A stretch of 64,000 nt of DNA from an uncultured bacterium. GTDB lineage: Bacteria > Omnitrophota > Omnitrophia > Omnitrophales > Abzuiibacteriaceae. The DNA is taken from contig CAYLXA010000009.1 in the NCBI GenBank assembly GCA_964387845.1, positions 32,001-96,000 of the forward strand, given 5' to 3'. Shown in pieces: positions 6,978-59,173 of this stretch; within the stretch, counting starts at the first letter, position 1; every line of letters starts with the position of its first letter. The notes under the pieces were generated by a model, which saw nothing but the letters and a program-made list of their open reading frames with translations, was not told the origin of the DNA and made no database searches. Position numbers and translations under genes: made by a program.

Positions 6978-7057
6978 CATAAGTGGTAAGTGATAAGTTG
7001 TAAGTAGGAAAAATAACTTACCGTTTCTCACTTAGCACTTACAACTTACCACTTAAA
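6978..7057. repeat. Heptamer-based palindromic intergenic element of the GTAAGTG family.
   Basis: cataagtggtaagtgataagttgtaagtagg / aacttaccgtttctcacttagcacttacaacttaccacttaaaac. Confidence 0.75.
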
Positions 7058-7063
7058 ACTAAA

Positions 7064-7645: not shown

Positions 7646-7650
7646 AGTGT

Positions 7651-7712
7651 TAAGCGGTAAGTTGTAAGTGGTAAGAAAAAACTTATCCCTTACCACCTAT
7701 CACTTAGCACTT
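7651..7712. repeat. Heptamer-based palindromic intergenic element of the GTAAGTG family.
   Basis: taagcggtaagttgtaagtggtaag / cttatcccttaccacctatcacttagcactt. Confidence 0.75.
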
Positions 7713-7714
7713 CT

Positions 7715-8743
7715 TTAAATTAATCTCTCAATCGAATCCGTCAAACGACGCGCCACATGATCCACAAGCGAAATAACTTTCGCATACGGCATGCGCGTCG
7801 GCCCTAAAATTCCCACGGTTCCCAGCAATTGGTTTTGGCAATGGTACGGCGCAAACACGAGTGTACAATCGCGGATTTCCTGAGGCAAATTTTCCTTGCC
7901 GATTCTCACTCGGATTTCACCGGCACGCAGCGGCTCGTTAATCGCCGATCTCAAAGTTTCCTTGGTTTCCAGGACTCTTGAGAGCAAGCGCGCTTTTTCG
8001 GATGCCTGGAATTCCGGCTGGCGCAAAATAAACCTGGATCCGTCGAGCGCTAATTTCCGCTCCTCTTCAATCACAAGCGCACGCTCTGCGATTTGAAGCG
8101 CGATGCGGTACAAAATCGCGGCGGAATCACGAACTTTGAGCAATCGCTCGCTTAAAAACTCCGGAATTTCGCTGAATTTTTTTCCCGAAAGCTCGGAATT
8201 CAGAAAATGATTAAGCCGCGCGACTTCCTCCATCGGAATTTCTTCTTCCATGTCGACCATTTTGTTCTGCACAAATCCGGACGTGGAAGCCCACATCACG
8301 AGCAAATGCGAACGGCCGTACGGAATTAATTCGATCTGTTTGAGAACAAGTTCGTTGAAATCCGGAAACAAAACCCAGCCGGCTTGCTCGGTCATCGATG
8401 ACAACACGCGCGCCGTGCGCTCAACCAGCTCTTCGATGCTTTTCGCCTTTTGGCGATATTCCCACGCAATCAGCGACGTTTCAGCAGCCTGGACGGATTT
8501 TTCTTTGATGAGAGCGTCGACATAAAAACGATACCCCGAATCGGTCGGAACGCGGCCGGCTGAAGTATGCGGATGATTGATGAAGCCAAGTGACTCAAGC
8601 TCCGACATTTCGTTGCGGATGGTCGCAGAGGAAATATCCGTGCTGAAATGTTCCGACACCACTTTTGAGCCCACAGGTTCTGTGGTTTTGGTGTAGAAAT
8701 CTACAATAATGGCTAAAATCTCTTTTTGACGCTCTGATAGCAT
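7715..8743 (-). CDS. hrcA: Heat-inducible transcription repressor HrcA.
   Basis: N-terminal winged helix (MLSERQKEILAIIVDFYTKTTEPVGSKVVSE), full-length HrcA similarity, CIRCE immediately upstream, classic hrcA-grpE-dnaJ order. Confidence 0.9.
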   Translation of the reverse strand: MLSERQKEILAIIVDFYTKTTEPVGSKVVSEHFSTDISSATIRNEMSELESLGFINHPHTSAGRVPTDSGYRFYVDALIKEKSVQAAETSLIAWEYRQKAKSIEELVERTARVLSSMTEQAGWVLFPDFNELVLKQIELIPYGRSHLLVMWASTSGFVQNKMVDMEEEIPMEEVARLNHFLNSELSGKKFSEIPEFLSERLLKVRDSAAILYRIALQIAERALVIEEERKLALDGSRFILRQPEFQASEKARLLSRVLETKETLRSAINEPLRAGEIRVRIGKENLPQEIRDCTLVFAPYHCQNQLLGTVGILGPTRMPYAKVISLVDHVARRLTDSIERLI

Positions 8744-8816: not shown

Positions 8817-8844
8817 ATTATAGCAAGGATTAGGAGAATTTCAA
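8817..8844 (-). promoter_or_regulatory. Sigma70-type promoter of the hrcA operon: TTGAAA-16 nt-TATAAT read on the minus strand.
   Basis: The plus strand reads attata at 8817..8822 and tttcaa at 8839..8844. CIRCE follows directly. Confidence 0.6.
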
Positions 8845-8850
8845 GCTTGG

Positions 8851-8926
8851 TTAAGTTGTAAGTGGTAAGTGATAAGTGCTAAGCAATTTGATTAACTTAC
8901 GACTTATCACTTATCACTTACAACTG
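8851..8926. repeat. Heptamer-based palindromic intergenic element of the GTAAGTG family.
   Basis: ttaagttgtaagtggtaagtgataagtgctaag / aacttacgacttatcacttatcacttacaactgaattaa. Confidence 0.75.
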
Positions 8927-8928
8927 AA

Positions 8929-11900
8929 TTAAGCGGCCATCGACGTGCGGAGTTCGGAGCGGTACTGATTCATGATGTCGGCGGTTAAGCCGGCAAGCCC
9001 TGTCAGCAAGTCAAATTGACGGCTCGTGGGAGTAATCAAATCATCCGGACTTTGAAGAATGCCGCGCGCAAAAAGCATTTCCGCAGTACCTTTATCGCGG
9101 CGTGAGGTGCCTAATGCATAACGCAGTTCAGACCTTGTTTCGCGGAGAATTTCCATTAATCGACGGTCGTTTTCTGCAACCGGGACCGGCTTAAATCCGG
9201 CCGCAATAAGTTCTGCATTAATCTCTTCAATCACACGAAGTTCGGAACGGGTGCTTGGCCTTGCAATTAGAACATGGCTTGGTGAAAGATTTTGCTGAAG
9301 TACGGCAATCAGCGGCCCATATTCAAACAATCCGCTCAAGGCAATCAAAGCGGTCTGCGCTTCTGCGCCATTCACCGATGACGCTTTCAACCCTAAAACT
9401 TCTGAAACTGCTGCACGCAATTCGGAGCGAGGCGCTGCGATACGGCTTAAGCTTTTTTGAACAACCGCACTTAAACGTTTTAAAGACTTTTCCTGATCCG
9501 CCACCGGATTAAGCCGCGCGAAATCATCAACGCCTCTTAATTCCGATCTGAGCTCTTCAGATTCATCGTCAGCAGCAGATTGACTGACCGCATCGTCTAA
9601 ACTCTTTTGGTTACCCTCGTTAATAGCTTCTCGAGCTTCTTGCGGATTAATATCAAACATTTCCGAAATCTCTTGGACGTCTGCAGGATCCTCGGCATCA
9701 TATGCTTTGGACCGGACTCGAACGTGCTCCGCTGCTAATTCAACCGAGGTCAATCCATGCGAATCGCCGTCTTCTAAATCCATCCGCAACTCGGACCGCG
9801 CTTCGGCAGCTTTTTGCGGCTGATCAGCCAATAGAAGTGCTTTTAAATCATTGTAAATAGAGGCGGATTGCCGAAAATCGAAGAAGTCTTTGCCATTACT
9901 ATCCTTGCTCTTTGAAAACTTATATCGAATGGCATGATGAATCTCAAGAATAATCCCGAAGACGGTTTGAAAGAGGTCAAATGCTTCGCCCTGGATTCCC
10001 GATTGCCGAAAATCAGTTGCAAACGCCGACGCTATACTATATGTGTCAACTCCCAACTTCTTTATTTTGTCCATTTCTATATCCTGCCGGAAAGCTGCGT
10101 TCAGATAATCGCGTGCAAGCTTAAAATATTCGTTCTTAAAGCCCTGAAACCGCTCAAGCCAATCTGTTTGCTCAGGATCTATTTTTGAAAGCGCAAGTTC
10201 GGTGGTTCTTTCCGCGTGATCAACAAGCTGAGTAATCAACGCTCGCATATCTTCAAGACTATAGGCCGTTGCGGTCTTTGAAGCTTTACTGTGTCCGGCA
10301 TTAGTATCTTGCGTTCCGGATTTGATTCGCCTAATTATCACAGCCGCCGCCAATCCAAGAACTCCGATAACACCGACGGCTACCTGCCCAAAACTAATCT
10401 CCGAAAAATAACCCTCAAAAGTTTCTTTCAAGCCGACGGACCGGACAATTGGCCCAAAAGCAAAAACCAGGACGCCGGCGGCAACAAACGCGCTTATCGC
10501 GAGCCACTTCGTCCGGCCGGTTAAGCTTTCAAGCGAATCCGTCCTTAATTCCGAGCGGCTACCGTAGTCGGGCCGGCTGTAAAATTGGCTCCCTTTTTGA
10601 TGGACCGTAAATCCAATCGAATGAATGAGTTGAACCGCTTCGCGCCGGTTAATGGCATATCCGAGATTGCTTGCTAATAAAATCACCTTATCAACAGTGA
10701 CTCGGCGAATATTTTTCAATTCATCTAAAACCTTTATGAAAAGATCATTCGAATTTTTCTGAGCACGTAATTCGGAGCGCGATAATTGCTCAACCGTTTC
10801 CCGAACAAATTGCGGAACTTCGCCGGTTGCACGCAACAGTTCTTTTCCAACTAACGTCCGGCGATGAAAATCAGATATCGGACGGTCACTGATGGCATCA
10901 GTAAGAGCTTTAAAAAGGTTCGGATCATTTTGTTTAAGAACCTCTAAAGATTGCGCATCAACTTGCTGACGCAATTCCGAACGGTTCAGAACGGCATTGA
11001 GGACATCACGTAAATCGGAAACGGCTTGGTCGAGATTTTCGAAGTCAATTTCTTGATCAGACCCGGCGATTTTCAATTTGGAGCCGTTCACTTCACCCTT
11101 CAGTCCGATATGCCTCAAGTTGGCTTCGACCGTCCGAGCCGTCACTTCGGGATTAAAACTCGCCACTGGCGCCAAAAATTCTTTGTCACCCGCTCTCACC
11201 TGAATTTTCCACTCCGAACCGAAGCCGGAAATCAATTCTACTTGCAATTCCGAACGTACGGATTCATTGGCCGCTTTGACAATACCCGTAAATTCATCGG
11301 CTTTGAGACTGGCGCCGCCGATTAAGCCACCGTCAATGTTCTTCTTTGCGACCAGCGAAGCCGCATTCTTTGGATTCATACTGCCGCCGTATTGAATACG
11401 CAATTTGGAAGCAACATCTTCGCCGTAAATGGAGAGAACTAGAGCGCGAATATAACGCTGGACCTCATCAGCCTGTTCGGGTGTTGCGGTTTTCCCAGTT
11501 CCGATGGCCCACACCGGCTCATAGGCAATTACGACATTCGCCATTTGTTCGGCCGTTACATCTTTCAAACCTTCGAGGATTTGTTTTTCAATCACGCCAA
11601 ATGTTTTGAACGCTTCACGCTCTTCCAGTAATTCACCAATCGCCAAAATCGGCTTTAAACCATTTTTGAGCGCGATTTTGACTTTGTCGTTGACGACCGG
11701 ATCAGACTCAGTCAGCCGATGATCAGCCGCTTTCTTTAAATTTCCGTGACGCCTTTCTGAGTGGCCGATAATGACATATTGAACACCCAAATCTTTTAAC
11801 TGAGCATAGGATATCTGGCTCGTTTGAGCGCCCGGTTCTTCAGCAGACAGATCTTGAGCACCCAACGTAAGCTGCTTGCTACCCGGATAGATTGTGGTTT

Positions 11901-17900: not shown

Positions 17901-18741
17901 CTGAAATTGCTGCTTTAATTTCATCTATATACTGCTTCATATCGGCGGTTTCGGTGATGAAACTCGAAAATTCAAATTTCTGGATCTGCTGAGCCCGGAG
18001 TTCAGAGCGCAGCAGTTCGAGTGCGGTTTCGCGGGCTTCGGAATCTTGAGGGAACGCAAAGATGGTGTCCACCAAAACCAATTTTCCGTTTCGGATATAT
18101 TCCATAAAAGAATCGATTTCAGGCCCCGGGAAAACTCCTTTGTGTTCACCCAGCATGTGAGAAATGTGATGATTTTGCGAAACGCTCTTTAAACCATTGC
18201 CGACATGGAAATGCAGGTGAGGCACTGTGATTTCCGTTCCACCGTTTACTCTCACTTTCAATTCTTTGCCCTGCCTAAAAAAGACCGTTAATTTTTTACT
18301 GTCATCTGAACTTTCTATCGATGACACGCCGCCATACAAGAGAGCATCTTTTAATTGGGCAGACAAATTATCCGGCCATGCAATGGTTTGGAAATCAAGG
18401 GATCCCTCGCCCAAAAGGCCTCTGTGTTCTGTGGTTTGCGCTACAATTAATAGAAGCTTGTCCGCCAATTGATCCGCAAGCTGTTGGCTGAGCGGTTTAT
18501 TCGGATCCAAAAACAACACTTGCCTGAGTTCGGAACGGAAAGAAGGATATTGCGCTGCAAATTGACGGAGTTCGGAAGCGGCTTTGCTCCAGACAGCGGC
18601 TAAATTGCGGACCGTAGTGGTGCCGGGCTTCGGCGCGAAAATAGTTTGCGGAATGTCCGAATATGCCATCGAACTCGAGAATGTAAACGCAAACAATGTT
18701 GCGCTTGCCGTCATTTTGATCAGTTTATGTTTTAGATTCAT
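8929..18741 (-). CDS. Giant polyprotein-like gene of about 3270 aa. It has a signal-peptide-like leader, a metallophosphoesterase module, a complete GTP-type PEP carboxykinase, a complete triosephosphate isomerase, a transmembrane segment and further modules. Twelve exact RSELR motifs. The start is moved to the ATG at 18739..18741.
   Basis: Stop-free frame of 9.8 kb. True N-terminus MNLKHKLIKMTASATLFAFTFSSSMAYSDIP. The track's 5' extension (MVSFKLLTTYHLSLITK) is a translation of the repeat element. Confidence 0.8.
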   Translation of the reverse strand: MNLKHKLIKMTASATLFAFTFSSSMAYSDIPQTIFAPKPGTTTVRNLAAVWSKAASELRQFAAQYPSFRSELRQVLFLDPNKPLSQQLADQLADKLLLIVAQTTEHRGLLGEGSLDFQTIAWPDNLSAQLKDALLYGGVSSIESSDDSKKLTVFFRQGKELKVRVNGGTEITVPHLHFHVGNGLKSVSQNHHISHMLGEHKGVFPGPEIDSFMEYIRNGKLVLVDTIFAFPQDSEARETALELLRSELRAQQIQKFEFSSFITETADMKQYIDEIKAAISDYALNRARNSVFFVGPRGKKIRLQIFKVERKGGTNVLFYEVKRDNKDGEVIAHASGSVTEASTRKKALRKRTKTKNSPFPVADSSDPLGQPAQLPVSGLVNSNQAPVHVIPNLKKKGLDVYFPGHAEPQFAGSAHALATLLQTRGVQLAKGDHRSSVIPIVERDTLVTVEWPVRGDLATVAGQINRIFELNHNSNRKNRSELREKSISTTYMPSKEELKLLFDLLSQLEKPSESRDFPIAAVISDQHGTIDRFDALIVDAINQVLPGQLPADFKLNPSKALQDQLAVHGVTFDDLRRKIYLHNLGDLMDRGPYGVKVFHRSAELIDAGLSDFIPGNHDLWMFMNLQGFHLPFYEGYNFYGDREAEAIADRYRKEIPEAKAKTWWAEHLAEFTAFHEKRQKEFWDTLEIKVNGAWTDEKRKKRVEGSGLYKQVSASLNGDAEQIRLWNQFRGWYLVDIYTGVRAVGTVSIPWWEDLLEGFRKAYASIEAAQGFDAELPSNQAWREAIRMMSEDILPELKKDLQSFVDQGKDWAKVFEAVNRQNYTSPEWWAKDWVFHKDWGTAVIKELNENLPADAKVTSANYLENHTLDRIADFFKAQFHLYQRDAYQNIYMHAFLPVDMSTGEFYFTYRSKDDPSKKIEYRGKGSKEHPSVWQGLDIVAHDIRSNPSLSEIYEALNLVNSWYADNTTEIKVPNVAAAINKFGARRLAEVNGFNRLFTGHLPFHEFATKLNAEKRGVIGGFQIDSRIIFTDHGMGERFGGRGGWIGVSLRNGIQLRGFEHADSNQVVADARTVETKEGPSGLMEAVLFENKPISPESFAADLARNVEMRIAQLQSQVESSDRKAVYKEYLSRFSAEELKEMLQVMRSKFAELVSYLHENLATLSPEDQDFQVTEFIVINEHIALLEEAIKAAARSELRGNAAQSIRFSQLNLPVKLAGLLRTKGVTTVNVLTQMSATDLRQARFSVENIQEITAALDRHGLSLRRAKSTEPSNALAAKQSELRTGDTAGASIFSIGDIQRQVIWRLREISGLESDIPIDDDVRFEDLIENWDSLKTVEFVVSLEGDFDIRIPDEEAEKIQTVASAIEVIDQLLTTRSELRAVRHAQRGRGSDTAAYEAEMRERALNEAREHLQANPGTLASALITRFGLEPSDVLDLYRDREIPSLSRSELRINLSEDDFKGVPQSVHEFVDYAHELVGAGESEWVDVSDEDRLQEEQVEWGKTSRRYFKTNDGRYVAHSHPKDVARTANRTMVLTNDSNDKGPSNNWAMADGPEGKKQTILDLMKADGYKGKKMYKIAYLMSDPDSGVRRVGIQLTDSRYVALNMIKMARVGKIAIGKLALDAIKEGYVFERGIHVTGDLDKLAAERERKENPIDNRYFALVAHEALILSYGSEYGGNALFGKKFEALRQANYDALRKKNFLAEHMLIKVLINKKTGERIGILGAYPSAVGKTNSAFVEVPDALKEDWEVEFHGDDIAWIQGQAGIKLFDEGGQPIDPTYITPIRDLNMAELISEDGWPKAESPELGSFGVLVGTNNKSNPRIMKMIGPGSKTIFTNGAYRLDPETDTVVEQWWEGLEEDGKPKPIGQPNWYVWNGMSSTDPKRIDIALKAVPVKDLEKFWLSDKSDTIRAILEEFDLEKINKKEAKSRLIKLSPHINEDVAESLMKIYAAALQWAHPNSRFTVSIPDNAKDFLPENWGKPVSFQVVEWGVKLPKGGFFLRQAPDTATGILYGLMMISAATAAAAGTVGALTPSPFANGDFEAGDEIAHTNNMFEFFENQPKEVIFITHNVFKEGPDGKPEFPGFRENVRRDIWSSERVKDPRGTKNAKKWPMLIGFTPTVDGFRREGLDMTDEALAKLLDVSEQDLEWFTKEAIRWRQWLFEEKGVVHGKTRYERLHPKLRQKFDEIMNDWNSFQAQRAIEKLKIDSEALARAENAKRTPIIGGNWKMAVNDKISAQVLTEQIVVSLGNTQLENDPEIIIAPSFVHIDEVVREIKRLRETTIYPGSKQLTLGAQDLSAEEPGAQTSQISYAQLKDLGVQYVIIGHSERRHGNLKKAADHRLTESDPVVNDKVKIALKNGLKPILAIGELLEEREAFKTFGVIEKQILEGLKDVTAEQMANVVIAYEPVWAIGTGKTATPEQADEVQRYIRALVLSIYGEDVASKLRIQYGGSMNPKNAASLVAKKNIDGGLIGGASLKADEFTGIVKAANESVRSELQVELISGFGSEWKIQVRAGDKEFLAPVASFNPEVTARTVEANLRHIGLKGEVNGSKLKIAGSDQEIDFENLDQAVSDLRDVLNAVLNRSELRQQVDAQSLEVLKQNDPNLFKALTDAISDRPISDFHRRTLVGKELLRATGEVPQFVRETVEQLSRSELRAQKNSNDLFIKVLDELKNIRRVTVDKVILLASNLGYAINRREAVQLIHSIGFTVHQKGSQFYSRPDYGSRSELRTDSLESLTGRTKWLAISAFVAAGVLVFAFGPIVRSVGLKETFEGYFSEISFGQVAVGVIGVLGLAAAVIIRRIKSGTQDTNAGHSKASKTATAYSLEDMRALITQLVDHAERTTELALSKIDPEQTDWLERFQGFKNEYFKLARDYLNAAFRQDIEMDKIKKLGVDTYSIASAFATDFRQSGIQGEAFDLFQTVFGIILEIHHAIRYKFSKSKDSNGKDFFDFRQSASIYNDLKALLLADQPQKAAEARSELRMDLEDGDSHGLTSVELAAEHVRVRSKAYDAEDPADVQEISEMFDINPQEAREAINEGNQKSLDDAVSQSAADDESEELRSELRGVDDFARLNPVADQEKSLKRLSAVVQKSLSRIAAPRSELRAAVSEVLGLKASSVNGAEAQTALIALSGLFEYGPLIAVLQQNLSPSHVLIARPSTRSELRVIEEINAELIAAGFKPVPVAENDRRLMEILRETRSELRYALGTSRRDKGTAEMLFARGILQSPDDLITPTSRQFDLLTGLAGLTADIMNQYRSELRTSMAA
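11290..12090 (-). other. Complete triosephosphate isomerase module.
   Basis: IIGGNWKM, IIGHSERR, AYEPVWAIGTGKTATP and YGGSMNP. It follows the PEPCK module directly. Confidence 0.8.
12190..14370 (-). other. Complete GTP-dependent phosphoenolpyruvate carboxykinase module.
   Basis: NNWAMADG, GKKMYKIAYLMSDPDSGVRRVGIQLTDSRYV, SYGSEYGGNALFGKKFEALR, YPSAVGKTN and HGDDIAW. Preceded by RSELR at about 14380..14400. Coordinates are approximate. Confidence 0.75.
15750..17200 (-). other. Calcineurin-like metallophosphoesterase module inside the 3270-aa gene.
   Basis: ISDQHG, GDLMDRG and GNHD motifs. Coordinates are approximate. Confidence 0.55.
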
Positions 18742-18747
18742 GTTTTT

Positions 18748-18810
18748 AGTGATAAGTGATAAGTGGTAAGTGGTAAGCAACTTAAAACTTACCACTTACA
18801 ACTTACGACT
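18748..18810. repeat. Heptamer-based palindromic intergenic element of the GTAAGTG family, between the 5718-aa and 3270-aa genes.
   Basis: tagtgataagtgataagtggtaagtggtaag / acttaccacttacaacttacgact. Confidence 0.75.
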
Positions 18811-18816
18811 GAAAAA

Positions 18817-21800
18817 TTATGCGGCGCGTCCCAATTCGATAACGTTACGCAGTTCCGATCTTAAAGATTCCGCAATTTGAGTAATACCAAACGCATTAAA
18901 CAGCGCCTTGACTTCGCTCCGGCCGACAAACACAACCTGGCTTGCATAACGCTTCAGCATTTCGGCTGACGTTGCGTCACTTTCTTTTGAAGCAATAATC
19001 CTGAAATTCTTGGCACCCAATTTCCGAAGTTCTGAGCGCGCCTGGACAAAATCGCGCACAATCACAAAACGGTCTGAGTTTACATCCGCAACCGCGGCCC
19101 GGATGGCAGTTTCGCTGGCCGGATCAAGCGCAATGAGCGCCGTCGGATCGGCCGAATTTTCTAAAATAATCGGAAGTGCCCATAAGACATCCTCGTTAAT
19201 CAAAAGGCCTTCTGTCAGAATATTACCGACTGCCGTTTCTACCCCGGCGCCATCCTGCGCTTGCATAAATTGACGAATAGCCGCTTGAGGTTCTTCGCTT
19301 CTGGCACGGGTAAACTGCCTCCGGCCTGCTTCGACTTTCGACCTGATTCGTGTAGTAACGGCCGCAGGAATCATGGAAGACGTATCCAACGAGCCAAACG
19401 CAGAGCTCGGAACCGCAGTCAATCGCAATTCGGAACGGGTTTCTAGTTTCTGGTTTTTAGTTTCTGGTTTAAACTTGAAACTAGAGACTAGAGACTCGAA
19501 ACTTTCCTTACGAAGTTCGGAACGCTCCCACTTACCCGTCTTTTCAAGCGTGTGCTGCGCAATTGCGTGTTTAGTTTTAATCAAAGACCCCAGATCAAGT
19601 TCAAATTCCGAGGATGTTAAAGTATATGTACCCGAAAATCTGGATTCCAATTGCTGGATGCGTTCCACACCTTCCAGAACCAAAACTTTTGTCATGTTCA
19701 ACTCATGATCAGACTCAAGCCCGAGATCGATACGATGTTGGGTCCTGTTCACAACCGAAACGAGCGCAAAAAGTTCCGAGACCATTTTCCCGAATGCCAT
19801 AAAATAGCTTTGAACTTCTTTCTTATCTTTGATGGCTTTTGCCCCGCCAAACCGTTCTATAAGTTCTTCGCCGGCTTTTTCAACCAAAGCTGATACGTTC
19901 CAAACAATTTCCCAATCACGCTGAAGCGGGCTTTGGTCTGGAATATCCCAGCCTTGCAGCAATTGACGGTCATTCTTCCACACTTCGGATTCCAAATATT
20001 TGAGTACTGCCGATGCAATAACTTGCGAATAAAGGATTTCGTTGGCGCCTTCAAAAATCGTCATGACACGGGCATCCGCGTTAGTACGGGCGACTTGTTC
20101 TTCAACCATAAACCCCGCACCGCCGCGTTTTTGAACCGCTTCACTTGTCAAACGGTTCAGAACTTCAGAGCCCCACGCCTTCGCGGCCGCAGCTTCAAGC
20201 CCTGGTTCCGAAACACCGCCGTCAAAAAGCCCGGCAAGTGAATAGCTAATAGACTCAAGCGCATAGGTGTAAGCTTCCATGTCTGCAAGCGTTTCCTGAA
20301 CAGCGCCCCAATTGGCGAGCTGCGTACCGAACTGTATGCGATCGAGCGACCAATTTAAAGTTCTTTCAAATGAACGGAGCGCACCGCCCCAGCTTCCGGC
20401 TGCGACCGCCGTACGGCCGTGATTGAGAATCGACATGCCGATTTTATTGCCGTCGCCCAATTGGCCGAGCAGATTTTCCTTCGGAACCCGCGCATTCTCA
20501 AAATACACATCGACAGTCGAAGAACCATGAAGGCCTGTTTTGTGGTAGTCGTTGCTGATGGAAATGCCTGCCGCTTTGCGTGCTTCCGCATCCTTCGGGA
20601 ATTCAACGATAAAAACACTCTTCTCGTTTTCACCCGTCATCGCAAATACGGTCATAACATCCATGAAACGGCCGTTTGTGATAAACGCTTTTTCGCCGGT
20701 AATTTCATAATATTCTTCACCGGTCGTTTCATCTTTTTTGAGCACCGCTTTGGTTTTTAAAACCGATTCGCGGTTTAAGCTGTCTGAACCATGCGCGGTT
20801 TCAGTCAACGCGTAAGCGCCGATCCATTCGCCGGTCGCGAGTTTCGGCAGGTATTTCCGCTTTTGCTCTTCCGTTCCGAATTTCACAATCGGAAGCGTTC
20901 CGACACCGCCATGAACACGAACGAGAGAACCCACCGACGGATTGGCATACCACGCCCACATATCTGCCAGTGTTTTCATAATCTTTTTAAAGTTACCCAA
21001 CCCGTATTCTTCGGGAACTGACATCCCCAGCAAGCCCATCTCTCCTGCCTGCTGCAAAATGCCGCCCTCATCCTCAACTTTGACAGCGCCGCTATCAATC
21101 TTTTCGCTTTCCGGAACTACCGCGCTCTTGAAGAAATTGGCGATGGCTTCATTCATTGCATTGATTTCTTCATGACCGGCTAAATCTTCCGGAAATTGGA
21201 GCGTGCCTTCGGCCACATTGGCGCGGCCATATAATAGGAAGTCGCCGGATTTGGGCGTACTTTCGGCGAACGGTACCAGTGCTTTGTCATTCTGAGGCGC
21301 AGCCGAAGAATCTACGGTCGCAGATCCTTCGCTTCGCTCAGGATGACCGGCTTTTGCCTTATCCAGCACTTCTTTTTCCATCGCGTCCATCATTTTCAGA
21401 GTATTGGCGCGAATCAAAAGAGCGTTCTTTCCATTTCTTGCTTCATAGGTAACGGGAACGATCGGCAGTTTTTCACGCGTGACTTTGATTTTGTCAGCCG
21501 CGGGAGCAATAGCGCGGATGTCAATCACATCGCCCGGACGGATGTCATGATTAAAAGTAGCCAGATCGGTCACATTCAGTAATAAATGACCGGGAACGGC
21601 TTCCGCAGACATCCTGGCCGCTACTTTAATGGCTGCAAGAATATTGACAAGTCTCGGATCATTTGATTCGGCAATCACGCGTACACCGTTTAAATAATCT
21701 TCCGTAACCGTTACGGGCAGAAGGCCGCTTGGATTTTCATTTGGCGATGACGTATCTTGAATGCGCGGGCTTGCAGAATCCGTAAAATCAAATATCTGCT

Positions 21801-51385: not shown

Positions 51386-54300
51386 TTACGCCGAACGGAG
51401 CGTCCGCAATTCGCTGCGAAGCTGAATACTCAATTGCTCAACAATATCCCGGATGCCGAGCGCCCGATAAAGCGCGCTGACATCTTCGCGCGACACATAC
51501 TCGACAAGACTTTTGTAACGTTCGCCGAGACGCTCAAAAAATGCTTTTTCGCGCTTAGAAGCAAGAATGCGTGTTTTATTAGCACCTTTTTCGATTAATT
51601 GCCGGCGCGCATCCGGATAACTTCTTGAAAATACCACATGATCGATTGAAATACCCTGAAGCACGTCCCGGATAGCGGCTTCACCGGTGCTGTCAACCAC
51701 AAATGCAATCCGGTCGACCTTCGGAACGATAAAACGAAGCGCCCACAAAAGCTCCTGGCCCTTTTCCGTTCTTTCGCTTTCGGCCAGCACAAGATCTTGA
51801 GTCAAAATCGTGCCAAGAACTTGATCGGATTGAGAAGGCGCAAAATAATCAAAGAAACGGATGGTGCTCGTGGGGTCATCATAATTGGGAAACCGCAGGT
51901 TTTCAACCGCTGCGTAGACAAACCCGCCAAGCTCTGTGCGCGCATTCCGATCAACCATATCGCCGAGCGTCGCAAAATCATCAACAACAGCACTTGATGC
52001 CCTCAATTCAGATCGAATGCCGGATTTTTCACTGGTTGCGGCCAATTGAGATTCCGCGGATGGCCCTACGTTCCTCCGAACCACAATCTTTGAAATTAAA
52101 TCCCTAATTCCGGAATCTGTTCTTTGATACGTACTCAAATTCGGTAATTTCAAACCTAAAGCCCCGGACAAACTTTTGAGCGTCGGGTGCTTAATTTTAC
52201 CTTGAACCATTGATTGGAGCGCGACGCGAAGTCTGTCCCTTGTGGGGGCTGGTTTAGTTTCCATTTGGTCTTTCGAATTTCTGAGCGAACCTTCAGTGAC
52301 AGCCCATTGTATGACTGCTTCAATAGCGGGATCGGACTTCCGATAGTTAACTAAAGTATCATAGGCGACATCCGCCTCAGCCGCTAACTCAGTTAAAGTT
52401 GTTTGCAGCCTACCTTCTTGGCCTAAGCGTTTCACCGTATCCAATATTCTGTCGCGGACAGACATCTTCGGAGTTTCTGTTTCTTCGCGCAACTCGGAAC
52501 GGCCGGATTGTCGCGATCGGAAAGCCCGGATTCCTTCCATGAGCTGAGTGCCGGTGACAGCTATCGCTTCACTTGCACCGGAGCCACCCTGAATTTCTCG
52601 CTCAACATCTTTTATCTCCAGTGTATCAATGAACGCTGGGACCGTCTGATTATCAATATTCGATCCCGATGATTTCACATAATCGGCAAACAAACGGTCG
52701 ATAGCAGAATTCACTTGGTCAGGAGTTGCCTCTGTCGCCCTTAATTCACTGCGCGGCTCCTGAATCCCGTCTGTATCAGAATCAGCCTGGCCGCTTTGCT
52801 CGGCTGTTTGAGCAACCGTAACGAAGTAGAAGGTCCCGCGTTTTGAAACACGGGCGCTTGGCACTGCGCCGGCTTCGGCTTGTTTCGGCATTGTTAGATT
52901 GATTCGGTTTATCAGCCACTCCAAAGTAAGAAGATTGGAAACACGCTGATCTCCGTCACGATAGAGTTCGGCAATCAAGTAAGTTTGCCCCTCCACTTTC
53001 TCGGAAATTGCAATTTTGTAAGAATAAGGCTCGATCAGAAAAACACGCTGCTTTCTGCCCACATACTTGATTGCAATATGAAATGGGCCGCTTAATTCAA
53101 CTGCTTTCCGGCCAAGTTTAAAATCAGATCTTTGCTTCGACAATTTAATAGGAACAACCCACAGCGCCGCCCAAAGGCCGGCTCCCAGCGCTGCGAAGCC
53201 GTACTGAGAAACAATATAAAAAAAGTCACTCGCGATGCTGACCGAACCTCCCAAATTATTTCTGAGCTCTGAACGCGAGGCAACTACCTCTGCATCTTCG
53301 GGGCCTAGATAAATTGTGTTTAAAATATCCTCGGGAATCAAAGCAACAATTTGTTTTGCAATAACGGCCGGAGCCCGAATGGCTGCCGATAAAGTAAAAT
53401 TCGATATTTCAATGATCAGCGTTTCGTTGGCAATATCAAATTTAAAATTGACTATATCTTCATCTGGATCGGGATGTAATTTGATCTCAATGCGCGGAAG
53501 TATATCGAGATTACGGTGTGCACGGCCAAAAGCTGATATTAAATGTGAACGCAAATACTCTTGCGGAGTCACTTTCGCCTCTTTTGAAGCTGCTGAAGAG
53601 AAAGGTGTATTTGTCCGGTTTGCGAATGCCGAAAATCCTCGCTTGATTACTAAAGTGACTAACGAAATGACACCAGCGAATAAACCGCCGGCAATATATT
53701 GAGAACCGGCATACACCAAATCAGAATATTCGGATGCACGAAGTTCGGATTTCTCGGCGCTGCCGGCTTGCGTTTCCAATTCGGCAAGTAACTTTTCGGC
53801 TTCCCTATCAGCTTCGGCGCTCTTTTTAAAAAGCGACAGGAAGAGATATATGAGAAAAGTAGAAATAAAACTGACACCGATTGCTACCTGCATCGGCTTT
53901 GAAGGGTCATGCGAAAGCCATTTGGTTAGCTGGTAAACAACAAACCCCGAAATAGCAGACGCGCCGGCAGAAATCGCCAACCTTACCAGTGAATTACGTA
54001 GTTCGGAACGGTGAGCATCATCCGAACTGGATTTTGGAGTTGAATTTTGATCTTTAATTTCACGAACAAAAAGTCGGAAGAAAATGCTCAACAGTACATT
54101 ACCAATCCACAATCTGAATTTACGGGTTGAACTTTGGTCTGTGACTGAACTGCCTGCTACCGCGGCACTCATAAGGTCAAATTCATCGTCATTGTCATTG
54201 GCAACCTGAGATCCGCTCGTTTGATTTGTCGCTTGTGGTTTTAAACGCCAATACGCAAGAAGCGTCAAGCCAATAATCGTTCCCACCACAATTAACCCAA

Positions 54301-57300
54301 CCCAACCTGCAGCGGCTCCTGTCAGAATTTTTAACGGCAGGTTCAATTCCGACCACGCGCTGCGTAGTTCGGAACGATGAGTAGTAACGGGGACGGTAGA
54401 CCCCACAACGCCAAGAAGATCGAAACGTGCGCTGCTGTCCACGCGCTGGTCTGCTTTTGTGATTAAATCAAAAAGAGACTGCAAAGCTTGTTTCTGATTT
54501 TCGTCGCGGACTTGCGCAAAAGCAAGCTGCAAAGCAGCTTCGGCATGGCTAAGCTGGCCTTTATTGAAAATCACGGCGGCCTGACGGACTAAAGATTCTA
54601 AATCGACAATTTCCGTAGGAAGCGGGGCAAATGGAAGCGATTCAAAAAATTTCCGGCTCTCACGGTCAGCAAAAGCTTGAGGCGTAATGCCTTCCGCTTT
54701 GGCGCTTTGCAAAATAACTCTCGTGCGGTGTTGGATTAAAGCCGCGATAGAACTATCGGAAGAATCATGCCCCAAATGGCCGTCAACTCCGGTGACGCCA
54801 CCGGCATTGGAAATATAATCCGGAACCGGTGTAATGCCCGCTGCTTTCAGCTCTTCCGCATCTTTCACCTTATCATAAAGCACATTATTCGTAGACCCGA
54901 CAACGCCCTTTACTCCGGCAAACATTAACTCTTTTGCAGCATCCGCATTAATCACAGGCCCTCGGGCTGCCGGCACAAAAATATCGACATGATCAACGCC
55001 CAGCCGGTTAAAATCATCTTTGAAATGCTTTGCCGGATTAAAAATCTTGGTTGTATAACCGCCGCCGGTTTTCGGTTCTTCCAAAAAGTGAAAGAAACGG
55101 TTTTGGTCAGCGTAAGTTTTAAGCGCCGGATGATCTTCGAAAAGTTTATCGATCCTTCCCTGGCTTACATCCGAAGCGATGACAACGCCGCCTTCATCCA
55201 AAATGGGCTGAATGACTTCGCTGCCGACACCACCCACGCCTTGAACTGTGAAAACTTTTCCCGCGATTTCGGGATTATCGGGAAAAATTTCTGATAATAA
55301 ACCTTTTAATGAAGCAATGATCCCAACGCCGGTCGGATGAGTCGGGACTTTGCTGTTTCCGGTTTCATCCGAATAAGGCACGATTGAAGTCGGCGCAAAT
55401 TTAAACAGCAGTTCGGCGTCCCGGACCGAAATATTCATGTCTTGTCCCGTTAAAACACCGCCGCCGATTAAATTTCCTATTTTCTCAACTGCTTTAGCGT
55501 AACTTTCAAGAATCGCATCGCGTTCGGGAGACTGAACCGCCGGATTAACCTTGTGGCTTCGGATAGCCGATTTGGAGCCGCCGATTTTTAAACCATTAAT
55601 ACCGGCACCTGCATTTTTAAAACTCATTTCCTGAGAAAGTTCAAGAGCATCAATCAACGCATCGACATCGCTTTGATAGCTCAAAATTCGCGTGCCGCCG
55701 GTAGCGCGCCACTGCCCGTTTAGGACACGGCCTTTGCTCTGAATTTGGGTAAGCCGGTGAATGGCAACATAAGCGGTATAACCCAAGATCGGGTTGTCAA
55801 TTTGAAATACGGCGTAATGCCGGTCCCAATGCTCACGGATCTGATCGACTGCTTCCGGAAAAGCCGCCATGAAATCACTCAAATTGCGCAATGCGTGGAT
55901 TTCGGTGCCATCCGGCATCACCATTCCGTCAAGGCGCTTTGGGTCCAACCGGTTGGCTTCGATATCGTATAAACGCAAATCGGCCACAACAGCTTTGGCC
56001 TGCCCCACAACCGATTCGCCCTGCGAATGATAAAGCCCGATTTCAATCCGCTCAAAAATGCCGATTAACTGTTCAAAGGATTCCGCGAGAGATAAAAGTG
56101 TTTGCGCAGTGGGCGTACCGACAATATTAAATTTTTTTCTGGTTGAAAAATCTCTTAATACGGCAGCGAAACTCTGAAACTGGAAATTTAAGATTTGGAC
56201 AGTCTTAAGATTGATTAATCCTGCATCAAGTACAACTTGAATATCGGTTTTGATTTTATTAAAAATCGGAGCGCGCACAACATCGCCCGCTACATCTCTT
56301 TCACTTTGTGTTGCCGCCGTTTCTTCCAGTTTCTGCGAACTGCTCTGAATTAACTGGACGCTTTCCAAAATAAGCCCCAGAACTTCACGAACATCCTTCT
56401 GCCGCAGCTCGGACTTTGCCAAATGGCTTGGCAAAGCCGAAGCAGTCCCGCGCAGTTCAGCGCGGGGCAGCTCGGCCGTTGATTTCGCCTCGGAGCGGGA
56501 AAGTTCTTCGAGAATAGAATCGGGTTGATTTGGATCGAGTATTTCCTTTAATTTTGCCAAAGCGATACTTCTATCTGAAAAATCTTTAACAGCCTGTATC
56601 AATTCTGACAGCGCCTTGCCTGTAGGACTCGTCGGCGCTTCAGCACGAGTCCGATGTTTGTCATAGCGTAGCGAATCTACTAAAAGAAACGCTTCGTGGG
56701 CTTTGCCGTGAAGCTGCTTCCACCGATGGTATGTATTGGGCATATTTCGTTGGAAGCCTGCTAAATCTGACTCCAGTTGCTCAAATATTGATTGGGCTTG
56801 AATAAGGCTGCTGTGAATAAATCTTATATCCTTTTCGGTTTGATGAAATTCCGGAGCGCTTGGGTTGATCATGACCAAGACAGGAGGAAATTTTTGTTTC
56901 ACTTTCTGAACCATAGGAATAAGTTGAGTTAAAATTTCTTCAAGAGTCGCGCGCAGCTCGGAGCGCGAATTCTTGAAAGCGTTGTTTCGGACGCCGGATT
57001 GATACTTGAAAGAGGTGTAAACATAAGTAATCGCAGCACCAATAAGCCCTGCGCCTACGCCGATCAGAATATACAGCGGCGTTGATTCAATGCCGTATCC
57101 AATACCGAGGATCGGAACGCTTACCGCGCCGGCGATGCCACCTGTAAAAAGACCGATAACCACGGAGTGAAGCACGCGCTCCCCTCGTGACATGTCTTTC
57201 AAAATACTGAATGACCTCGCCCGCAGCTCGGACTTTGCCAAATGGCTTGGCAAAACCGAAGCAGCCCCGCGCAGTTCAGCGCGGGGCAGCTCGGCCCTGT

Positions 57301-59173
57301 GAAGACGCTCCGTATCCACAGGTCTCTCGAGTTGTGGTTCCGAAGGAACTTTACGAACCTCGGAACGGCTATGCAATAATGGTAGTTTCGACAAAGGCGT
57401 ACCTGCATTGCTATCGAGAAACTCTTGAACGAGCTTAGAAACTGTTTCCGCTTTTGCGTTTTCTGCTTTAACAGTAATAAGCCATGTTGGATAACTATCC
57501 GCCCAAATAAACTGAAGGTCTTGATATTTCAAAAACCGTCGTGTTCCATAATAAGAATCGATAATTTCAACACCATTTTCATTTTGAGAAACAACCACGC
57601 CTTGAATGTCGTCACTCTCCTTAATTTTTGCGTGCAGAAAATACCAATAACCCTTTACTCCAGGCTTATTATTCCCAAGATGAAAATGCATCCGATCCCA
57701 AAGATTCATCCAATCCTGGATACCTTCCACAACTTCAATAATTTCAATTTTCTTAGCTTTCTGTTTGGACTGCCGCAGCTCGGAGCGGGGCTTTTCGCCG
57801 TCACGCAGACGTGAATGCCGGGCTTGAGTAATGTGCGGCGTATCGTCTTCCACGGGCTCTTGAATATCCTTAGGATCTGCGCCGTGGCGAAGCTTTTGAA
57901 GATACGTCAAGTCAGCGTCTGCCTGCGGCGGCGTTTGGTCATCTTCCGATGCGTGGCGTAATTCTGAACGTTGGTCAGTTTTAGGTTGCGGTGTTAATGT
58001 GGGCCACTCCTCCCAAACCCATTTCTTTCTCATACGTTCTTCCGCCGGATAATCAGTTGTACCAATCATGAAATGTGAGCCATGAGGAGAGAGCCAATAT
58101 TCATCCTCTGCACGGCCTTTACCAGAACTTACGGTCAGGACGAAATCTTGGTGTTCGCTAAGAATGGCGGTTACTTTTTCAACAAAAGCTTGTGTCGTGG
58201 CTTCATTCATTAAACGGTATCTCAAATTTGCTACTTCATCGTCAATGAAATCTTCAGAAGGCAATAAACCGCTTAAATTTAAATTTCTCACCTTCTCTTC
58301 AATGCTGTGAATAATTTGATTTTTTCTGATTTCACGCGCACTTAACACAGGAGCAGATTGATACGCCTTGCGCACCATGCGGTAATAAGTAATCGCAGCG
58401 CTAATAAGCCCTGTACCAACGCCGATCAAAACAGATGAGGCGGTCGATTTAATGTTGTATCCAGTGCCGAGAATCGGGACACTCAAAGAACCGACAATAC
58501 CTCCGACAAAAACACCGATGAGCAAGGTATTGGCAATAAGTTCTCCCCGCGACATACCCTTAAAAGCTCTTGCTCGCAATTCAGAACGGGATTCTGATCG
58601 AGTTTCGATTGAAATTTGAACTTGATCGGTAGAGGCAACTATCACGTTCTCAAGCGCAGGCTTTAAGTCAAAACGGATAACTAACCAATCCGTACTGACC
58701 GGAATGTTGCTTCCGTTGATTGAGATACCGGAAATACGGACATGGGACCAGGGGTCAAATTTGAGATGCAAACCGGTTTTTTGGCTGACGATATTTAAAA
58801 TATCCAAAACGATTGAAGAGAGTTTCTTAGTTCCAATGCGCTGATTGTAAGAATACGGTTCTCCGTTGATGGTAAAATTGATATTCGACAGAGCCCGTTC
58901 GGTTGATTGCTCCGGAAGTCGTAATTCTGATTTTTTACCAAAATCATCCTCCGGAATTTCCAGTTTTGCGGGGATTTCAATGCCTGCTTTACGAAGCTCA
59001 GAACGCACGTTTGAGAACCCAGTGTGCGCTTCCGGATTTGCCCGTATGTGATAAACTTCGGAATTTTTAAGCGCAACAGAAGACGCAAAATCCGTGTAAC
59101 CGACGGTACTAGTAAATGTAAAAGTGATGAGGAGTGTGAGCGAAATAATCTTCAAAAATGGCTTGCCGGACAT
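51386..59173 (-). CDS. Giant membrane-associated polyprotein-like gene of 2595 aa. It has a leader, a two-transmembrane hairpin module present twice, a Glu/Leu/Phe/Val-dehydrogenase-like module, and a TetR-like helix-turn-helix module. It carries the most RSELR motifs of any gene: 12 exact plus six variants (PRAELR, KSELR).
   Basis: Stop-free frame of 7.8 kb with an ATG at 59171..59173. Leader: MSGKPFLKIISLTLLITFTFTSTVGYTD. Confidence 0.8.
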   Translation of the reverse strand: MSGKPFLKIISLTLLITFTFTSTVGYTDFASSVALKNSEVYHIRANPEAHTGFSNVRSELRKAGIEIPAKLEIPEDDFGKKSELRLPEQSTERALSNINFTINGEPYSYNQRIGTKKLSSIVLDILNIVSQKTGLHLKFDPWSHVRISGISINGSNIPVSTDWLVIRFDLKPALENVIVASTDQVQISIETRSESRSELRARAFKGMSRGELIANTLLIGVFVGGIVGSLSVPILGTGYNIKSTASSVLIGVGTGLISAAITYYRMVRKAYQSAPVLSAREIRKNQIIHSIEEKVRNLNLSGLLPSEDFIDDEVANLRYRLMNEATTQAFVEKVTAILSEHQDFVLTVSSGKGRAEDEYWLSPHGSHFMIGTTDYPAEERMRKKWVWEEWPTLTPQPKTDQRSELRHASEDDQTPPQADADLTYLQKLRHGADPKDIQEPVEDDTPHITQARHSRLRDGEKPRSELRQSKQKAKKIEIIEVVEGIQDWMNLWDRMHFHLGNNKPGVKGYWYFLHAKIKESDDIQGVVVSQNENGVEIIDSYYGTRRFLKYQDLQFIWADSYPTWLITVKAENAKAETVSKLVQEFLDSNAGTPLSKLPLLHSRSEVRKVPSEPQLERPVDTERLHRAELPRAELRGAASVLPSHLAKSELRARSFSILKDMSRGERVLHSVVIGLFTGGIAGAVSVPILGIGYGIESTPLYILIGVGAGLIGAAITYVYTSFKYQSGVRNNAFKNSRSELRATLEEILTQLIPMVQKVKQKFPPVLVMINPSAPEFHQTEKDIRFIHSSLIQAQSIFEQLESDLAGFQRNMPNTYHRWKQLHGKAHEAFLLVDSLRYDKHRTRAEAPTSPTGKALSELIQAVKDFSDRSIALAKLKEILDPNQPDSILEELSRSEAKSTAELPRAELRGTASALPSHLAKSELRQKDVREVLGLILESVQLIQSSSQKLEETAATQSERDVAGDVVRAPIFNKIKTDIQVVLDAGLINLKTVQILNFQFQSFAAVLRDFSTRKKFNIVGTPTAQTLLSLAESFEQLIGIFERIEIGLYHSQGESVVGQAKAVVADLRLYDIEANRLDPKRLDGMVMPDGTEIHALRNLSDFMAAFPEAVDQIREHWDRHYAVFQIDNPILGYTAYVAIHRLTQIQSKGRVLNGQWRATGGTRILSYQSDVDALIDALELSQEMSFKNAGAGINGLKIGGSKSAIRSHKVNPAVQSPERDAILESYAKAVEKIGNLIGGGVLTGQDMNISVRDAELLFKFAPTSIVPYSDETGNSKVPTHPTGVGIIASLKGLLSEIFPDNPEIAGKVFTVQGVGGVGSEVIQPILDEGGVVIASDVSQGRIDKLFEDHPALKTYADQNRFFHFLEEPKTGGGYTTKIFNPAKHFKDDFNRLGVDHVDIFVPAARGPVINADAAKELMFAGVKGVVGSTNNVLYDKVKDAEELKAAGITPVPDYISNAGGVTGVDGHLGHDSSDSSIAALIQHRTRVILQSAKAEGITPQAFADRESRKFFESLPFAPLPTEIVDLESLVRQAAVIFNKGQLSHAEAALQLAFAQVRDENQKQALQSLFDLITKADQRVDSSARFDLLGVVGSTVPVTTHRSELRSAWSELNLPLKILTGAAAGWVGLIVVGTIIGLTLLAYWRLKPQATNQTSGSQVANDNDDEFDLMSAAVAGSSVTDQSSTRKFRLWIGNVLLSIFFRLFVREIKDQNSTPKSSSDDAHRSELRNSLVRLAISAGASAISGFVVYQLTKWLSHDPSKPMQVAIGVSFISTFLIYLFLSLFKKSAEADREAEKLLAELETQAGSAEKSELRASEYSDLVYAGSQYIAGGLFAGVISLVTLVIKRGFSAFANRTNTPFSSAASKEAKVTPQEYLRSHLISAFGRAHRNLDILPRIEIKLHPDPDEDIVNFKFDIANETLIIEISNFTLSAAIRAPAVIAKQIVALIPEDILNTIYLGPEDAEVVASRSELRNNLGGSVSIASDFFYIVSQYGFAALGAGLWAALWVVPIKLSKQRSDFKLGRKAVELSGPFHIAIKYVGRKQRVFLIEPYSYKIAISEKVEGQTYLIAELYRDGDQRVSNLLTLEWLINRINLTMPKQAEAGAVPSARVSKRGTFYFVTVAQTAEQSGQADSDTDGIQEPRSELRATEATPDQVNSAIDRLFADYVKSSGSNIDNQTVPAFIDTLEIKDVEREIQGGSGASEAIAVTGTQLMEGIRAFRSRQSGRSELREETETPKMSVRDRILDTVKRLGQEGRLQTTLTELAAEADVAYDTLVNYRKSDPAIEAVIQWAVTEGSLRNSKDQMETKPAPTRDRLRVALQSMVQGKIKHPTLKSLSGALGLKLPNLSTYQRTDSGIRDLISKIVVRRNVGPSAESQLAATSEKSGIRSELRASSAVVDDFATLGDMVDRNARTELGGFVYAAVENLRFPNYDDPTSTIRFFDYFAPSQSDQVLGTILTQDLVLAESERTEKGQELLWALRFIVPKVDRIAFVVDSTGEAAIRDVLQGISIDHVVFSRSYPDARRQLIEKGANKTRILASKREKAFFERLGERYKSLVEYVSREDVSALYRALGIRDIVEQLSIQLRSELRTLRSA
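52300..52480 (-). other. TetR-like helix-turn-helix segment embedded in the giant gene.
   Basis: RDRILDTVKRLGQEGRLQTTLTELAAEADVAYDTLVNYRKS resembles the TetR N-terminal helix-turn-helix. Confidence 0.4.
54750..55950 (-). other. Amino-acid (Glu/Leu/Phe/Val) dehydrogenase-like module.
   Basis: GGTRILSY, GLKIGGSKSAI and VQGVGGVGSEVIQPILDEGGVVIASD (Rossmann). Confidence 0.5.
56398..56480. repeat. About 80-bp in-frame element made of two perfect hairpins (ctttgccaa/ttggcaaag and ccccgcgc/gcgcgggg); copy 1 of 2.
   Basis: Near-identical to the copy at 57218..57296. Encodes PRAELRG(T)ASALPSHLAKSELR. Confidence 0.7.
57218..57296. repeat. About 80-bp in-frame double-hairpin element; copy 2 of 2.
   Basis: Direct repeat of the copy at 56398..56480, about 820 bp away. 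Confidence 0.7.

Follow-up and report, generated by a model that had tools for sequence, protein, structure and literature searches.

The 64-kb window analysed here (64,000 nucleotides of an uncultured Omnitrophota bacterium, positions 32,001 to 96,000 of contig CAYLXA010000009.1 in assembly GCA_964387845.1, numbered from its first letter) contains six very long open reading frames (ORFs) on the minus strand between 8929 and 63955, with lengths of 3288, 5718, 4513, 524, 2595 and at least 1497 amino acids (aa). Five of the six carry between them 55 invariant SELR motifs, mostly in the form RSELR, which lie between otherwise unrelated enzymes of central metabolism. These enzymes include TIM, PEPCK, acyl-CoA synthetase, acyl-CoA dehydrogenase and 3-hydroxyacyl-CoA dehydrogenase, together with two methylmalonyl-CoA mutases, MeaB, biotin carboxylase, a carboxyltransferase, GDH and phosphoglucomutase. 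The residues flanking the RSELR motif are not conserved. The giant ORFs look like natural bacterial polyproteins, and because the motif is placed between unrelated enzymes we infer, by analogy with viral polyproteins, that it may act as a processing site; we refer to it below as a delimiter. A search of the literature on RSELR or on natural bacterial polyproteins found nothing relevant. The subject of this report is a palindromic cassette of 76 nucleotides (nt) that occurs twice, in frame, within the 2595-aa ORF.

The 2595-aa ORF (51386–59173, minus strand) is polyprotein-like according to the ORF list and to motif and domain scans. It has a signal-peptide-like leader, 16 xSELR motifs and the variants RAELR (twice) and RSEVR, a GDH domain and several hydrophobic segments. 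Cutting the protein at its delimiter motifs gives an RSELR (aa 196–200) followed by membrane module A and a 140-aa domain (aa 201–406; 57956–58573, minus strand), then RSELR, a 61-aa spacer, a further RSELR and a 140-aa domain, and then RSEVR and 28 residues with cassette copy 2 (aa 626–651) at their end. Membrane module B (aa 652–741) comes next, followed by RSELR, a 167-aa domain that closes in cassette copy 1 (aa 899–924), and a 680-aa segment that contains the GDH domain. The two cassettes enclose module B, its RSELR and the 167-aa domain, with a start-to-start distance of 819 nt (273 codons). The soluble stretch of approximately 157 aa between the RSELR of module B and copy 1 (56478–56950, minus strand), which together with module B makes up the enclosed unit, is an orphan with no Pfam match, and individual host segments compared with Pfam gave nothing above noise. 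Two degenerate delimiter-like sequences lie close to the cassettes, RSEVR (57353–57367) 19 residues ahead of copy 2 and RSEAK (56487–56501) two residues ahead of copy 1, and may be older sites replaced by the delimiters of the cassettes themselves.

Copy 1 (56402–56477, minus strand; peptide AELPRAELRGTASALPSHLAKSELR) lies between the 167-aa domain, which is helical, and the GDH-containing segment, while copy 2 (57221–57296, minus strand; peptide AELPRAELRGAASVLPSHLAKSELR) in the protein is directly upstream of membrane module B. The two form a direct repeat in which 74 of 76 nt are identical (97.4%; blastn E = 6e-31), and a match of this kind was obtained in none of 100 shuffles. The similarity ends sharply on both sides, and the 60-nt flanks on each side are unrelated. 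Comparison of the host gene by blastn with itself and with the whole window revealed exactly two repeat pairs, the 76-nt block and a second block within the membrane modules. An earlier first-pass annotation of this DNA had described a near-identical pair of about 80 bp, each copy encoding a peptide with two variant delimiters, and both descriptions hold; the peptides read AELPRAELRG(A/T)AS(V/A)LPSHLAKSELR, with RAELR followed 11 residues on by KSELR. The same annotation proposed looking for more copies of the double hairpin. Within the window, which represents 64 kb of a 106-kb contig and is the range of our copy count for this genome, there is no third cassette by blastn, pattern search or a covariance model with filters off, and neither stem-loop sequence recurs even when three mismatches are allowed, or turned up in any of the 100 shuffles. 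In public collections of genomes, metagenomes (searched with two patterns) and viruses, pattern searches likewise gave no match, and neither did blastn in plasmid and phage collections.

Almost the whole of each copy is taken up by two adjacent extended palindromes, each able to form a stem-loop. In copy 2, palindrome 1 (57264–57287) has the sequence GCCCCGCGC-AGTTCA-GCGCGGGGC, which gives a stem of 9 bp that can be extended to 13-nt arms with one A·A mismatch; it encodes LPRAELRGA, with RAELR sitting symmetrically inside it (CGCGC-TGAACT-GCGCG). The equivalent in copy 1 (56445–56468) has seven perfect pairs and then one mismatch, a T·G on the plus strand. For palindrome 2 it is copy 1 (56414–56436) that has the 9-bp stem, CTTTGCCAA-ATGGC-TTGGCAAAG, with 16-nt arms that match at 81% (56407–56443), while copy 2 (57233–57255) has (C)TTTGCCAA-ATGGC-TTGGCAAA(A), with 8 bp, encoding (V)LPSHLAK. 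In each copy one stem is perfect and the other is a pair shorter. The copies differ by two substitutions, both non-synonymous, which each change an outer stem pair of a different palindrome. The first-pass annotation had assigned two perfect hairpins to each copy. The two stem-loops are indeed present, but only one of them is perfect in any one copy: ctttgccaa-N5-ttggcaaag pairs fully over 9 bp in the copy at 56.4 kb and over 8 bp plus a T·G in that at 57.2 kb, whereas ccccgcgc-N6-gcgcgggg is perfect at 57.2 kb (9 bp with the next pair) and is reduced to 7 bp with one mismatch at 56.4 kb. Perfect hairpins as such are not enriched across the window, with approximately nine loci compared with approximately eight in shuffles. 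Three of the nine are within the cassettes, palindrome 1 of the 56.4-kb copy falling just under 8 perfect pairs.

The cassettes also stand out in composition. Their guanine plus cytosine (GC) content is 67% as against 47% for the window, at the 99.9th percentile of 76-nt windows, and their codon typicality, expressed as the geometric-mean codon fraction, is 0.22 compared with a background mean of 0.34 and lies below the 1st percentile. When the 25-aa cassette peptide was recoded with synonymous codons, none of 3000 recodings folded as stably as the observed sequence on either strand; compared with dinucleotide shuffles the folding gave z = −3.0 to −5.3, and the folding energy had no strand preference. 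The palindromes are shown by this to be a property of the nucleotides and not of the peptide. Since a GCGC stem requires Ala (GCN) in place of the usual Ser, the structure would have shaped the RAELR variant, and it appears to be the stem that dictates the variant motif and not the reverse. Delimiters do not in general have such hairpins: the minimum free energy at the four motifs inside the cassettes is −28 to −43 kcal/mol compared with −6 to −27 kcal/mol at the other approximately 57 motifs. A dedicated role for the cassette hairpins is possible. At neither copy is there a terminator-like site, a T-run after either stem or a promoter consensus, and Rfam gave no match over the window at the gathering threshold, the best sub-threshold score being 25.9 bits against a cut-off of 46.

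The second repeat pair belongs to the membrane modules and has a different character. Module B (56951–57220, minus strand) consists of two hydrophobic helices with RSELR at its end. A 144-nt block in it (57023–57165) is 73–74% identical to one in module A (58385–58527), and the proteins share 48% of residues over approximately 100 aa (E = 3e-23), so that the two-helix module is present twice at the places first described. The hydrophobic stretches are aa 210–263 in module A and aa 666–721 in module B; the homology begins directly after SELR and the domains downstream are unrelated. Judged by their sequences, the modules are true but old paralogues. The same codon is used at all 23 residues shared by the cassettes, compared with 22 of 44 identical residues in the modules (P ~1e-7), which supports the conclusion that the cassette copies are far younger than the module duplication, or else are held identical at the DNA level. 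That the cassettes are far more alike than the modules (97% against 74% in our comparison) had been recognized in the first-pass annotation, which nevertheless placed a module beside each cassette and treated element and module as one internal duplication. Neither of these points stands. Of the two copies, just the one at 57.2 kb adjoins a module, with 40 nt between it and module B. The one at 56.4 kb is found 183 codons downstream of that module, and what precedes module A is a plain RSELR that has no cassette. The differing geometry and identities, and a module A that lacks a cassette, indicate two separate histories. Both modules open with a conserved MSRGE (57191–57205 and 58547–58561), 6–9 residues past the delimiter, which may be the former start codon of a small membrane protein that once stood alone.

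The ends of the cassette coincide with delimiter codons. On the coding strand it reads GG-CCGAGCTGC-(54 nt)-CCGAGCTGC-GG, where the 9-nt strings are 63 nt (21 codons) apart and are themselves delimiter-coding (xCC GAG CTG C = [A/S]-E-L-). A unit of 63 nt keeps the frame and adds a peptide within the ORF, as do Rickettsia palindromic elements (RPEs). If one such unit is removed, the site of copy 2 becomes HRAELR|ARSF, paralleling RSELR|ARAF before module A, and that of copy 1 becomes TAELR|QKD, so that an xAELR delimiter is restored at both. The 9-nt direct repeat that flanks the core is identical in the two copies and lies inside the repeated block. We looked for the terminal inverted repeats expected of transposable elements of the miniature inverted-repeat type (MITEs) and found direct repeats instead (GGCCGAGCTGC... 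and ...CCGAGCTGCGG), and the 54-nt core likewise has ends (CCCGCGC... and ...GGCAAAGT) that form no inverted repeat.

Many codon combinations are otherwise used to spell the 55 SELR motifs of the window, and only 0.5% of random SELR pairs have all four codons alike. The contrast between these varied codons and the identical codons of the cassettes indicates that selection on the delimiter acts on the peptide, whereas in the cassette it is the DNA that is conserved. Nevertheless, four SELR sites in a row (57773, 57221, 56951 and 56402) share the spelling TCCGAGCTGCG. Apart from the two in the cassettes these are plain RSELR delimiters, one at 57773–57787 (minus strand; codons CGC TCC GAG CTG CGG), identified by repeat and codon comparison, and the other at 56951–56965 (minus strand; CGC TCC GAG CTG CGC). 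The delimiter at 57773 is identical over 15 nt to the 3′ end of copy 1 and its flank (plus strand 57770–57784 and 56399–56413).

We favour an explanation in which the cassette is a palindromic in-frame linker that was copied locally by template switching or gene conversion anchored on delimiters, and we regard it as about evenly poised between right and wrong. One copy would recently have been made from the other through template switching or non-allelic gene conversion, with identical delimiter codons providing the anchor and a transposase being unnecessary, and this copying would have been an event separate from the old membrane-module duplication. At the protein level the cassette would be a mere spacer with two delimiters, RAELR and KSELR. 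Should RSELR-type motifs be sites of cleavage, the 16-aa peptide that the palindromes encode would be trimmed off, and an insertion would for this reason be tolerated in the ORF; the cassette does not disturb the frame and brings two delimiters with it, and this would be why it is tolerated. The suggestion in the first-pass annotation of a recent spread or gene conversion survives in part, as recent copying or conversion fits the data, while exactly two copies 819 nt apart do not amount to a spread.

Several points weigh against this explanation. Identical delimiter codons cluster with only modest significance (permutation p ~0.03 when the two cassettes are counted once), and cleavage at RSELR itself rests on inference. 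With two copies, recency is not separable from selection for identity, as in the concerted evolution of a functional element, and two perfect stems of 8–9 bp side by side appear designed, not accidental. The terminal 9-nt repeats would equally fit a target-site duplication made by a site-specific mobile element, and since the search for copies in the genome of origin spans the 64-kb window, dispersed copies could exist elsewhere in it.

A rival explanation, which we think rather doubtful, is that the cassette is a small non-autonomous mobile element, akin to RPEs or to the double-hairpin elements of mitochondria, that inserts in frame at the delimiter target CCGAGCTGC, duplicates it, and should have more copies in the genome. 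The sharp boundaries of the cassette fit such an element, as do terminal direct repeats of 9 nt with a spacing that is a multiple of three, a GC-rich composition with atypical codons, and the restoration of xAELR at both sites by the removal of one 63-nt unit. There are neighbouring ‘empty’ sites with the same target codons, and in-frame palindromic elements have been documented in other systems (PMC10969869; PMC2800124). However, an element of this kind has left only two copies in 64 kb, 819 nt apart, despite approximately 55 other SELR sites, and the cassette has no terminal inverted repeats. Pfam scans of the window ORFs found no transposase, RAYT or integrase domain, and none of the public genome, metagenome, viral, plasmid and phage collections yielded a match. 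The ‘duplication’ is moreover the same at both copies, so it is indistinguishable from part of the repeated block.

A second rival gives the hairpins a function in messenger RNA. We scanned the window by folding sliding segments of 80 nt and found strong structures of two kinds, AT-rich heptamer palindromes at gene ends and four sites inside giant ORFs. The former are built of (G/A)TAAGT(G/T) heptamers, share the core CTTACCACTTA and directly follow the stops at 4398, 5846, 7064, 7715, 8929 and 18817 (z to −8.5), occupying 4280–4405, 5750–5855, 6965–7070, 7625–7725, 8840–8940 and 18725–18830. They follow both ordinary and giant genes, no U-tract was noticed, and they are probably gene-end hairpins. 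The four strongly structured sites within approximately 54 kb of giant ORF are the two cassettes, 19423–19524 and approximately 21281–21360. At 19423–19524 (minus strand) a GTTTCTA/G heptamer palindrome fills a 25-aa spacer between two RSELR in the 5718-aa ORF; it folds much better as the plus strand, antisense to the gene (−40.1 as against −24.0 kcal/mol), because many of its pairs are G·U on that strand. At 21281–21360 (minus strand), in the same ORF, the linker GHPERSEGSATVDSSAAPQ, which joins the MaoC and acyl-CoA dehydrogenase domains, is a GC-rich palindrome of approximately 60 nt (z = −4.9) in which RSEGS may be a decayed delimiter. Short spacers between tandem delimiters make up 0.6% of the length of the giant ORFs, yet account for three of the four strongly structured sites within them. 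The simplest reading of this distribution is that palindromic DNA persists in the giant genes only where translating it does no harm, which means in linkers and preferably between two delimiters.

On the functional account the cassette would be an internal gene boundary of a polyprotein gene that arose as a fused operon, in which a hairpin of the type found at stop codons was kept in frame and flanked by delimiters. Its role would be in 3′-end protection, processing or pausing, the tandem delimiters would serve to discard the peptide that it encodes, and identity of the copies would follow from selection together with gene conversion; in one variant the two copies would be recombination sites through which a two-product cassette could enter or leave the polyprotein gene in frame. 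The same logic would also account for the palindrome-filled spacer between two RSELR at 19.4 kb. We consider this account unlikely, though it has clear attractions. At six of ten gene ends in the window a strong palindrome directly follows the stop, the palindromes within ORFs are in linkers and in three of four cases between tandem delimiters, and the peptide does not of itself give rise to the structure. There is also a resemblance in layout, the natural ORF ends being RSELR, 5–9 aa, a stop and a hairpin, and the cassette being RAELR, 12 aa, a hairpin and SELR. On the other hand such structure is found at only three of approximately 57 delimiter positions, and the cassette is unlike the AT-rich heptamer palindromes of the gene ends. 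The stops of the 2595-, 4513- and 524-aa ORFs have no strong hairpin, and the structure after the 1497-aa ORF is far weaker (z = −2.5). The folding energy of the cassette is without strand preference, it has neither a U-tract nor an Rfam family, and there are no homologues in which to look for covariation.

It is very improbable that the copies are two direct-repeat recombination sites around an excisable or insertable in-frame cassette of 819 bp, comprising module B and the 167-aa domain, with the palindromes acting as recombinase-binding arms around a spacer of 5–6 nt in the manner of lox, dif or attC. The copies do enclose a discrete two-product unit, whose excision would preserve the frame and leave one cassette behind, and palindrome 1 does have 13-nt arms (one mismatch) around a 6-nt spacer, a geometry that is unspecific when taken alone. 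Preservation of the frame is, however, automatic for any two in-frame copies, the Pfam scans of the window found no recombinase or integrase domain, and module B, whose old paralogue A lies in the same gene, shows no obvious sign of import. Least probable of all is selection at the protein level for an extended linker or cleavage peptide, or inheritance of the cassettes as part of the old segmental duplication of the module: the peptide does carry two good delimiters and one copy does adjoin a module, but 23 codons without a synonymous difference where RSELR elsewhere uses many codon sets, the atypical codons and the recoding test, the unrelated flanks, a module A without a cassette and identities of 97% as against 74% all argue against it.

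Some other candidates were considered and rejected. A template repeat and variable repeat pair of a diversity-generating retroelement does not fit, as the differences between the copies are G/A and T/C in opposite directions and the window has no reverse transcriptase domain. There is no slippery site upstream for a frameshift stimulator, and an assembly artefact was set aside on account of a longest exact run of 33 nt. CRISPR was also considered and rejected. A sigma-54-like TGGCA-N9-GC spacing can be seen by eye on both strands, which follows from the palindromic nature of the sequence, and its −12 element is poor.

We compared the cassette with systems that have similar features. RPEs and other intragenic MITE-like repeats (PMC10969869, citing Ogata et al. 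2000) are short palindromic DNA that adds a peptide in frame and leaves the product intact; RPEs have a length of approximately 150 bp and tens of copies per genome, dispersed among unrelated genes. The cassette, likewise, is short palindromic DNA in frame within a coding gene and a nucleotide-level entity. It differs from RPEs in being 76 nt long (with a 63-nt unit), in having two copies in one gene and no terminal inverted repeats, and in being placed exactly on a recurring delimiter that the insert re-creates; the likeness drawn here is one of description. The double-hairpin or repetitive hairpin-forming elements and GC clusters of mitochondria (PMC2800124 and papers cited in it) are organellar, multi-copy and mostly intergenic or in variable regions of rRNA, although sometimes inside genes and kept in transcripts, and identity among their copies is taken as a sign of recent origin or of structural constraint. 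The cassette shares with them two adjacent short stem-loops in a short repeated unit, and it is GC-rich relative to its host genome, as are the yeast GC clusters. Unlike them it is in a bacterial chromosome (hrcA, grpE and dnaJ are nearby), occurs twice and is associated with a peptide delimiter.

Three further comparisons are more distant. REPs are extragenic short imperfect palindromes, and a REPIN consists of one REP present twice in inverted orientation and requires a RAYT transposase. The cassette also has short imperfect palindromes, and the window has a REP-like family of gene-end hairpins as well. The cassette itself is intragenic with two different palindromes, which sets it apart from REPs and REPINs, and the Pfam scans of the window ORFs found no RAYT/Y1 transposase domain; the lack of inverted termini likewise separates it from MITEs. 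In viral polyproteins a short spacer peptide between two processing sites can be released as a by-product, as with SP1 and SP2 of HIV Gag. The arrangement RAELR, 16 aa, KSELR is similar at the protein level, with cleavage putative here, whereas no palindromic repeat DNA encodes the viral spacers. Quasipalindrome or template-switch mutagenesis and microhomology-mediated gene conversion are able to make perfect inverted repeats and to copy short tracts between nearby similar sites; this is a mutational process with no element family, and it is suggested here by the structure of the cassette ends only. The cassette is related in kind to RPEs and double-hairpin elements through its in-frame palindromic nature, but as far as could be tested it is not multi-copy and dispersed as they are, and we assign it to none of the families compared.

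The cassette is a clean case of palindromic repeat DNA that lies in frame, sits on a recurring peptide delimiter and re-creates it. For the evolution of giant RSELR genes it would mean that linkers are places that tolerate insertions and exchanges at the DNA level, that neighbouring delimiters exchange sequence, and that repeats bracketing modules could mediate the loss or gain of those modules. If the hairpins are functional, they would show that signals in messenger RNA were accommodated where cleavable linkers replaced intergenic regions, and an internal gene boundary, if that is what the cassette is, would be the protein-level counterpart of an intercistronic region. The polyprotein architecture itself, with its leaders, tails and gene-end hairpins, is more remarkable than the cassette.

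A word-indexed search for homologues of the 730-aa region around the cassettes found none, and in an exhaustive HMMER search of the same region against 1.84e9 representatives the sole match was the protein itself. AlphaFold models from single sequences had a mean predicted local distance difference test (pLDDT) score of 41.5 for module B and its domain and 48.1 for module A and its domain, too poor for a fold search. The PEPCK–TIM stretch, compared with the proteins of a genome collection, gave only TIM matches of 42–45% from unrelated phyla, and a protein search based on TIM found no RSELR relatives, two contigs that were examined further being without the motif. The nearest multi-domain relative of the TIM, on the Logan SRR6487178 contig (1–7358), is an 833-aa fusion of a signal peptide, TIM and enolase. 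Before it lies an ORF, longer than 1617 aa, in which sugar-phosphate enzymes are fused and no RSELR-type motif occurs. This has the look of another lineage in which multi-enzyme genes are fused.

The giant ORFs have other features in common. Four of them (2595, 4513, 5718 and 3288 aa), including the host of the cassettes, start with a similar signal-peptide-like leader (for example KIISLTLLITFTFTSTVGYTDF and KLISALLVVSFSFTSSIAYSDIPY), with starts at 59173, 49786, 35973 and 18795, and the first RSELR comes within approximately 55–160 aa after the leader. The ends are at 51386, 36245, 18817, 8929 and 59462; three ORFs finish with RSELR and 5–9 further residues (TSMAA*, NVIELGRAA* and TLRSA*), and the other two finish in ...TRAA* and ...LSRA*. 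The last module of approximately 200 aa is homologous between the 2595-aa ORF (51389–52033) and the 5718-aa ORF (18820–19455), with an identity of 30–32%, and has RSELR on both sides. It matched no Pfam family and no database homologue, and may be specific to this system. The ordinary genes gpsA, dnaJ, grpE and hrcA adjoin the giant ORFs. In positions 1–4397 (approximately 4.4 kb) no ORF exceeds 110 aa and there is no match to a tRNA, an rRNA or Rfam; several heptamer arrays are present there, together with a long palindrome of the TCTGGTA/TACTAGA type (2915–2983; also 3265–3291 and 3377–3406).

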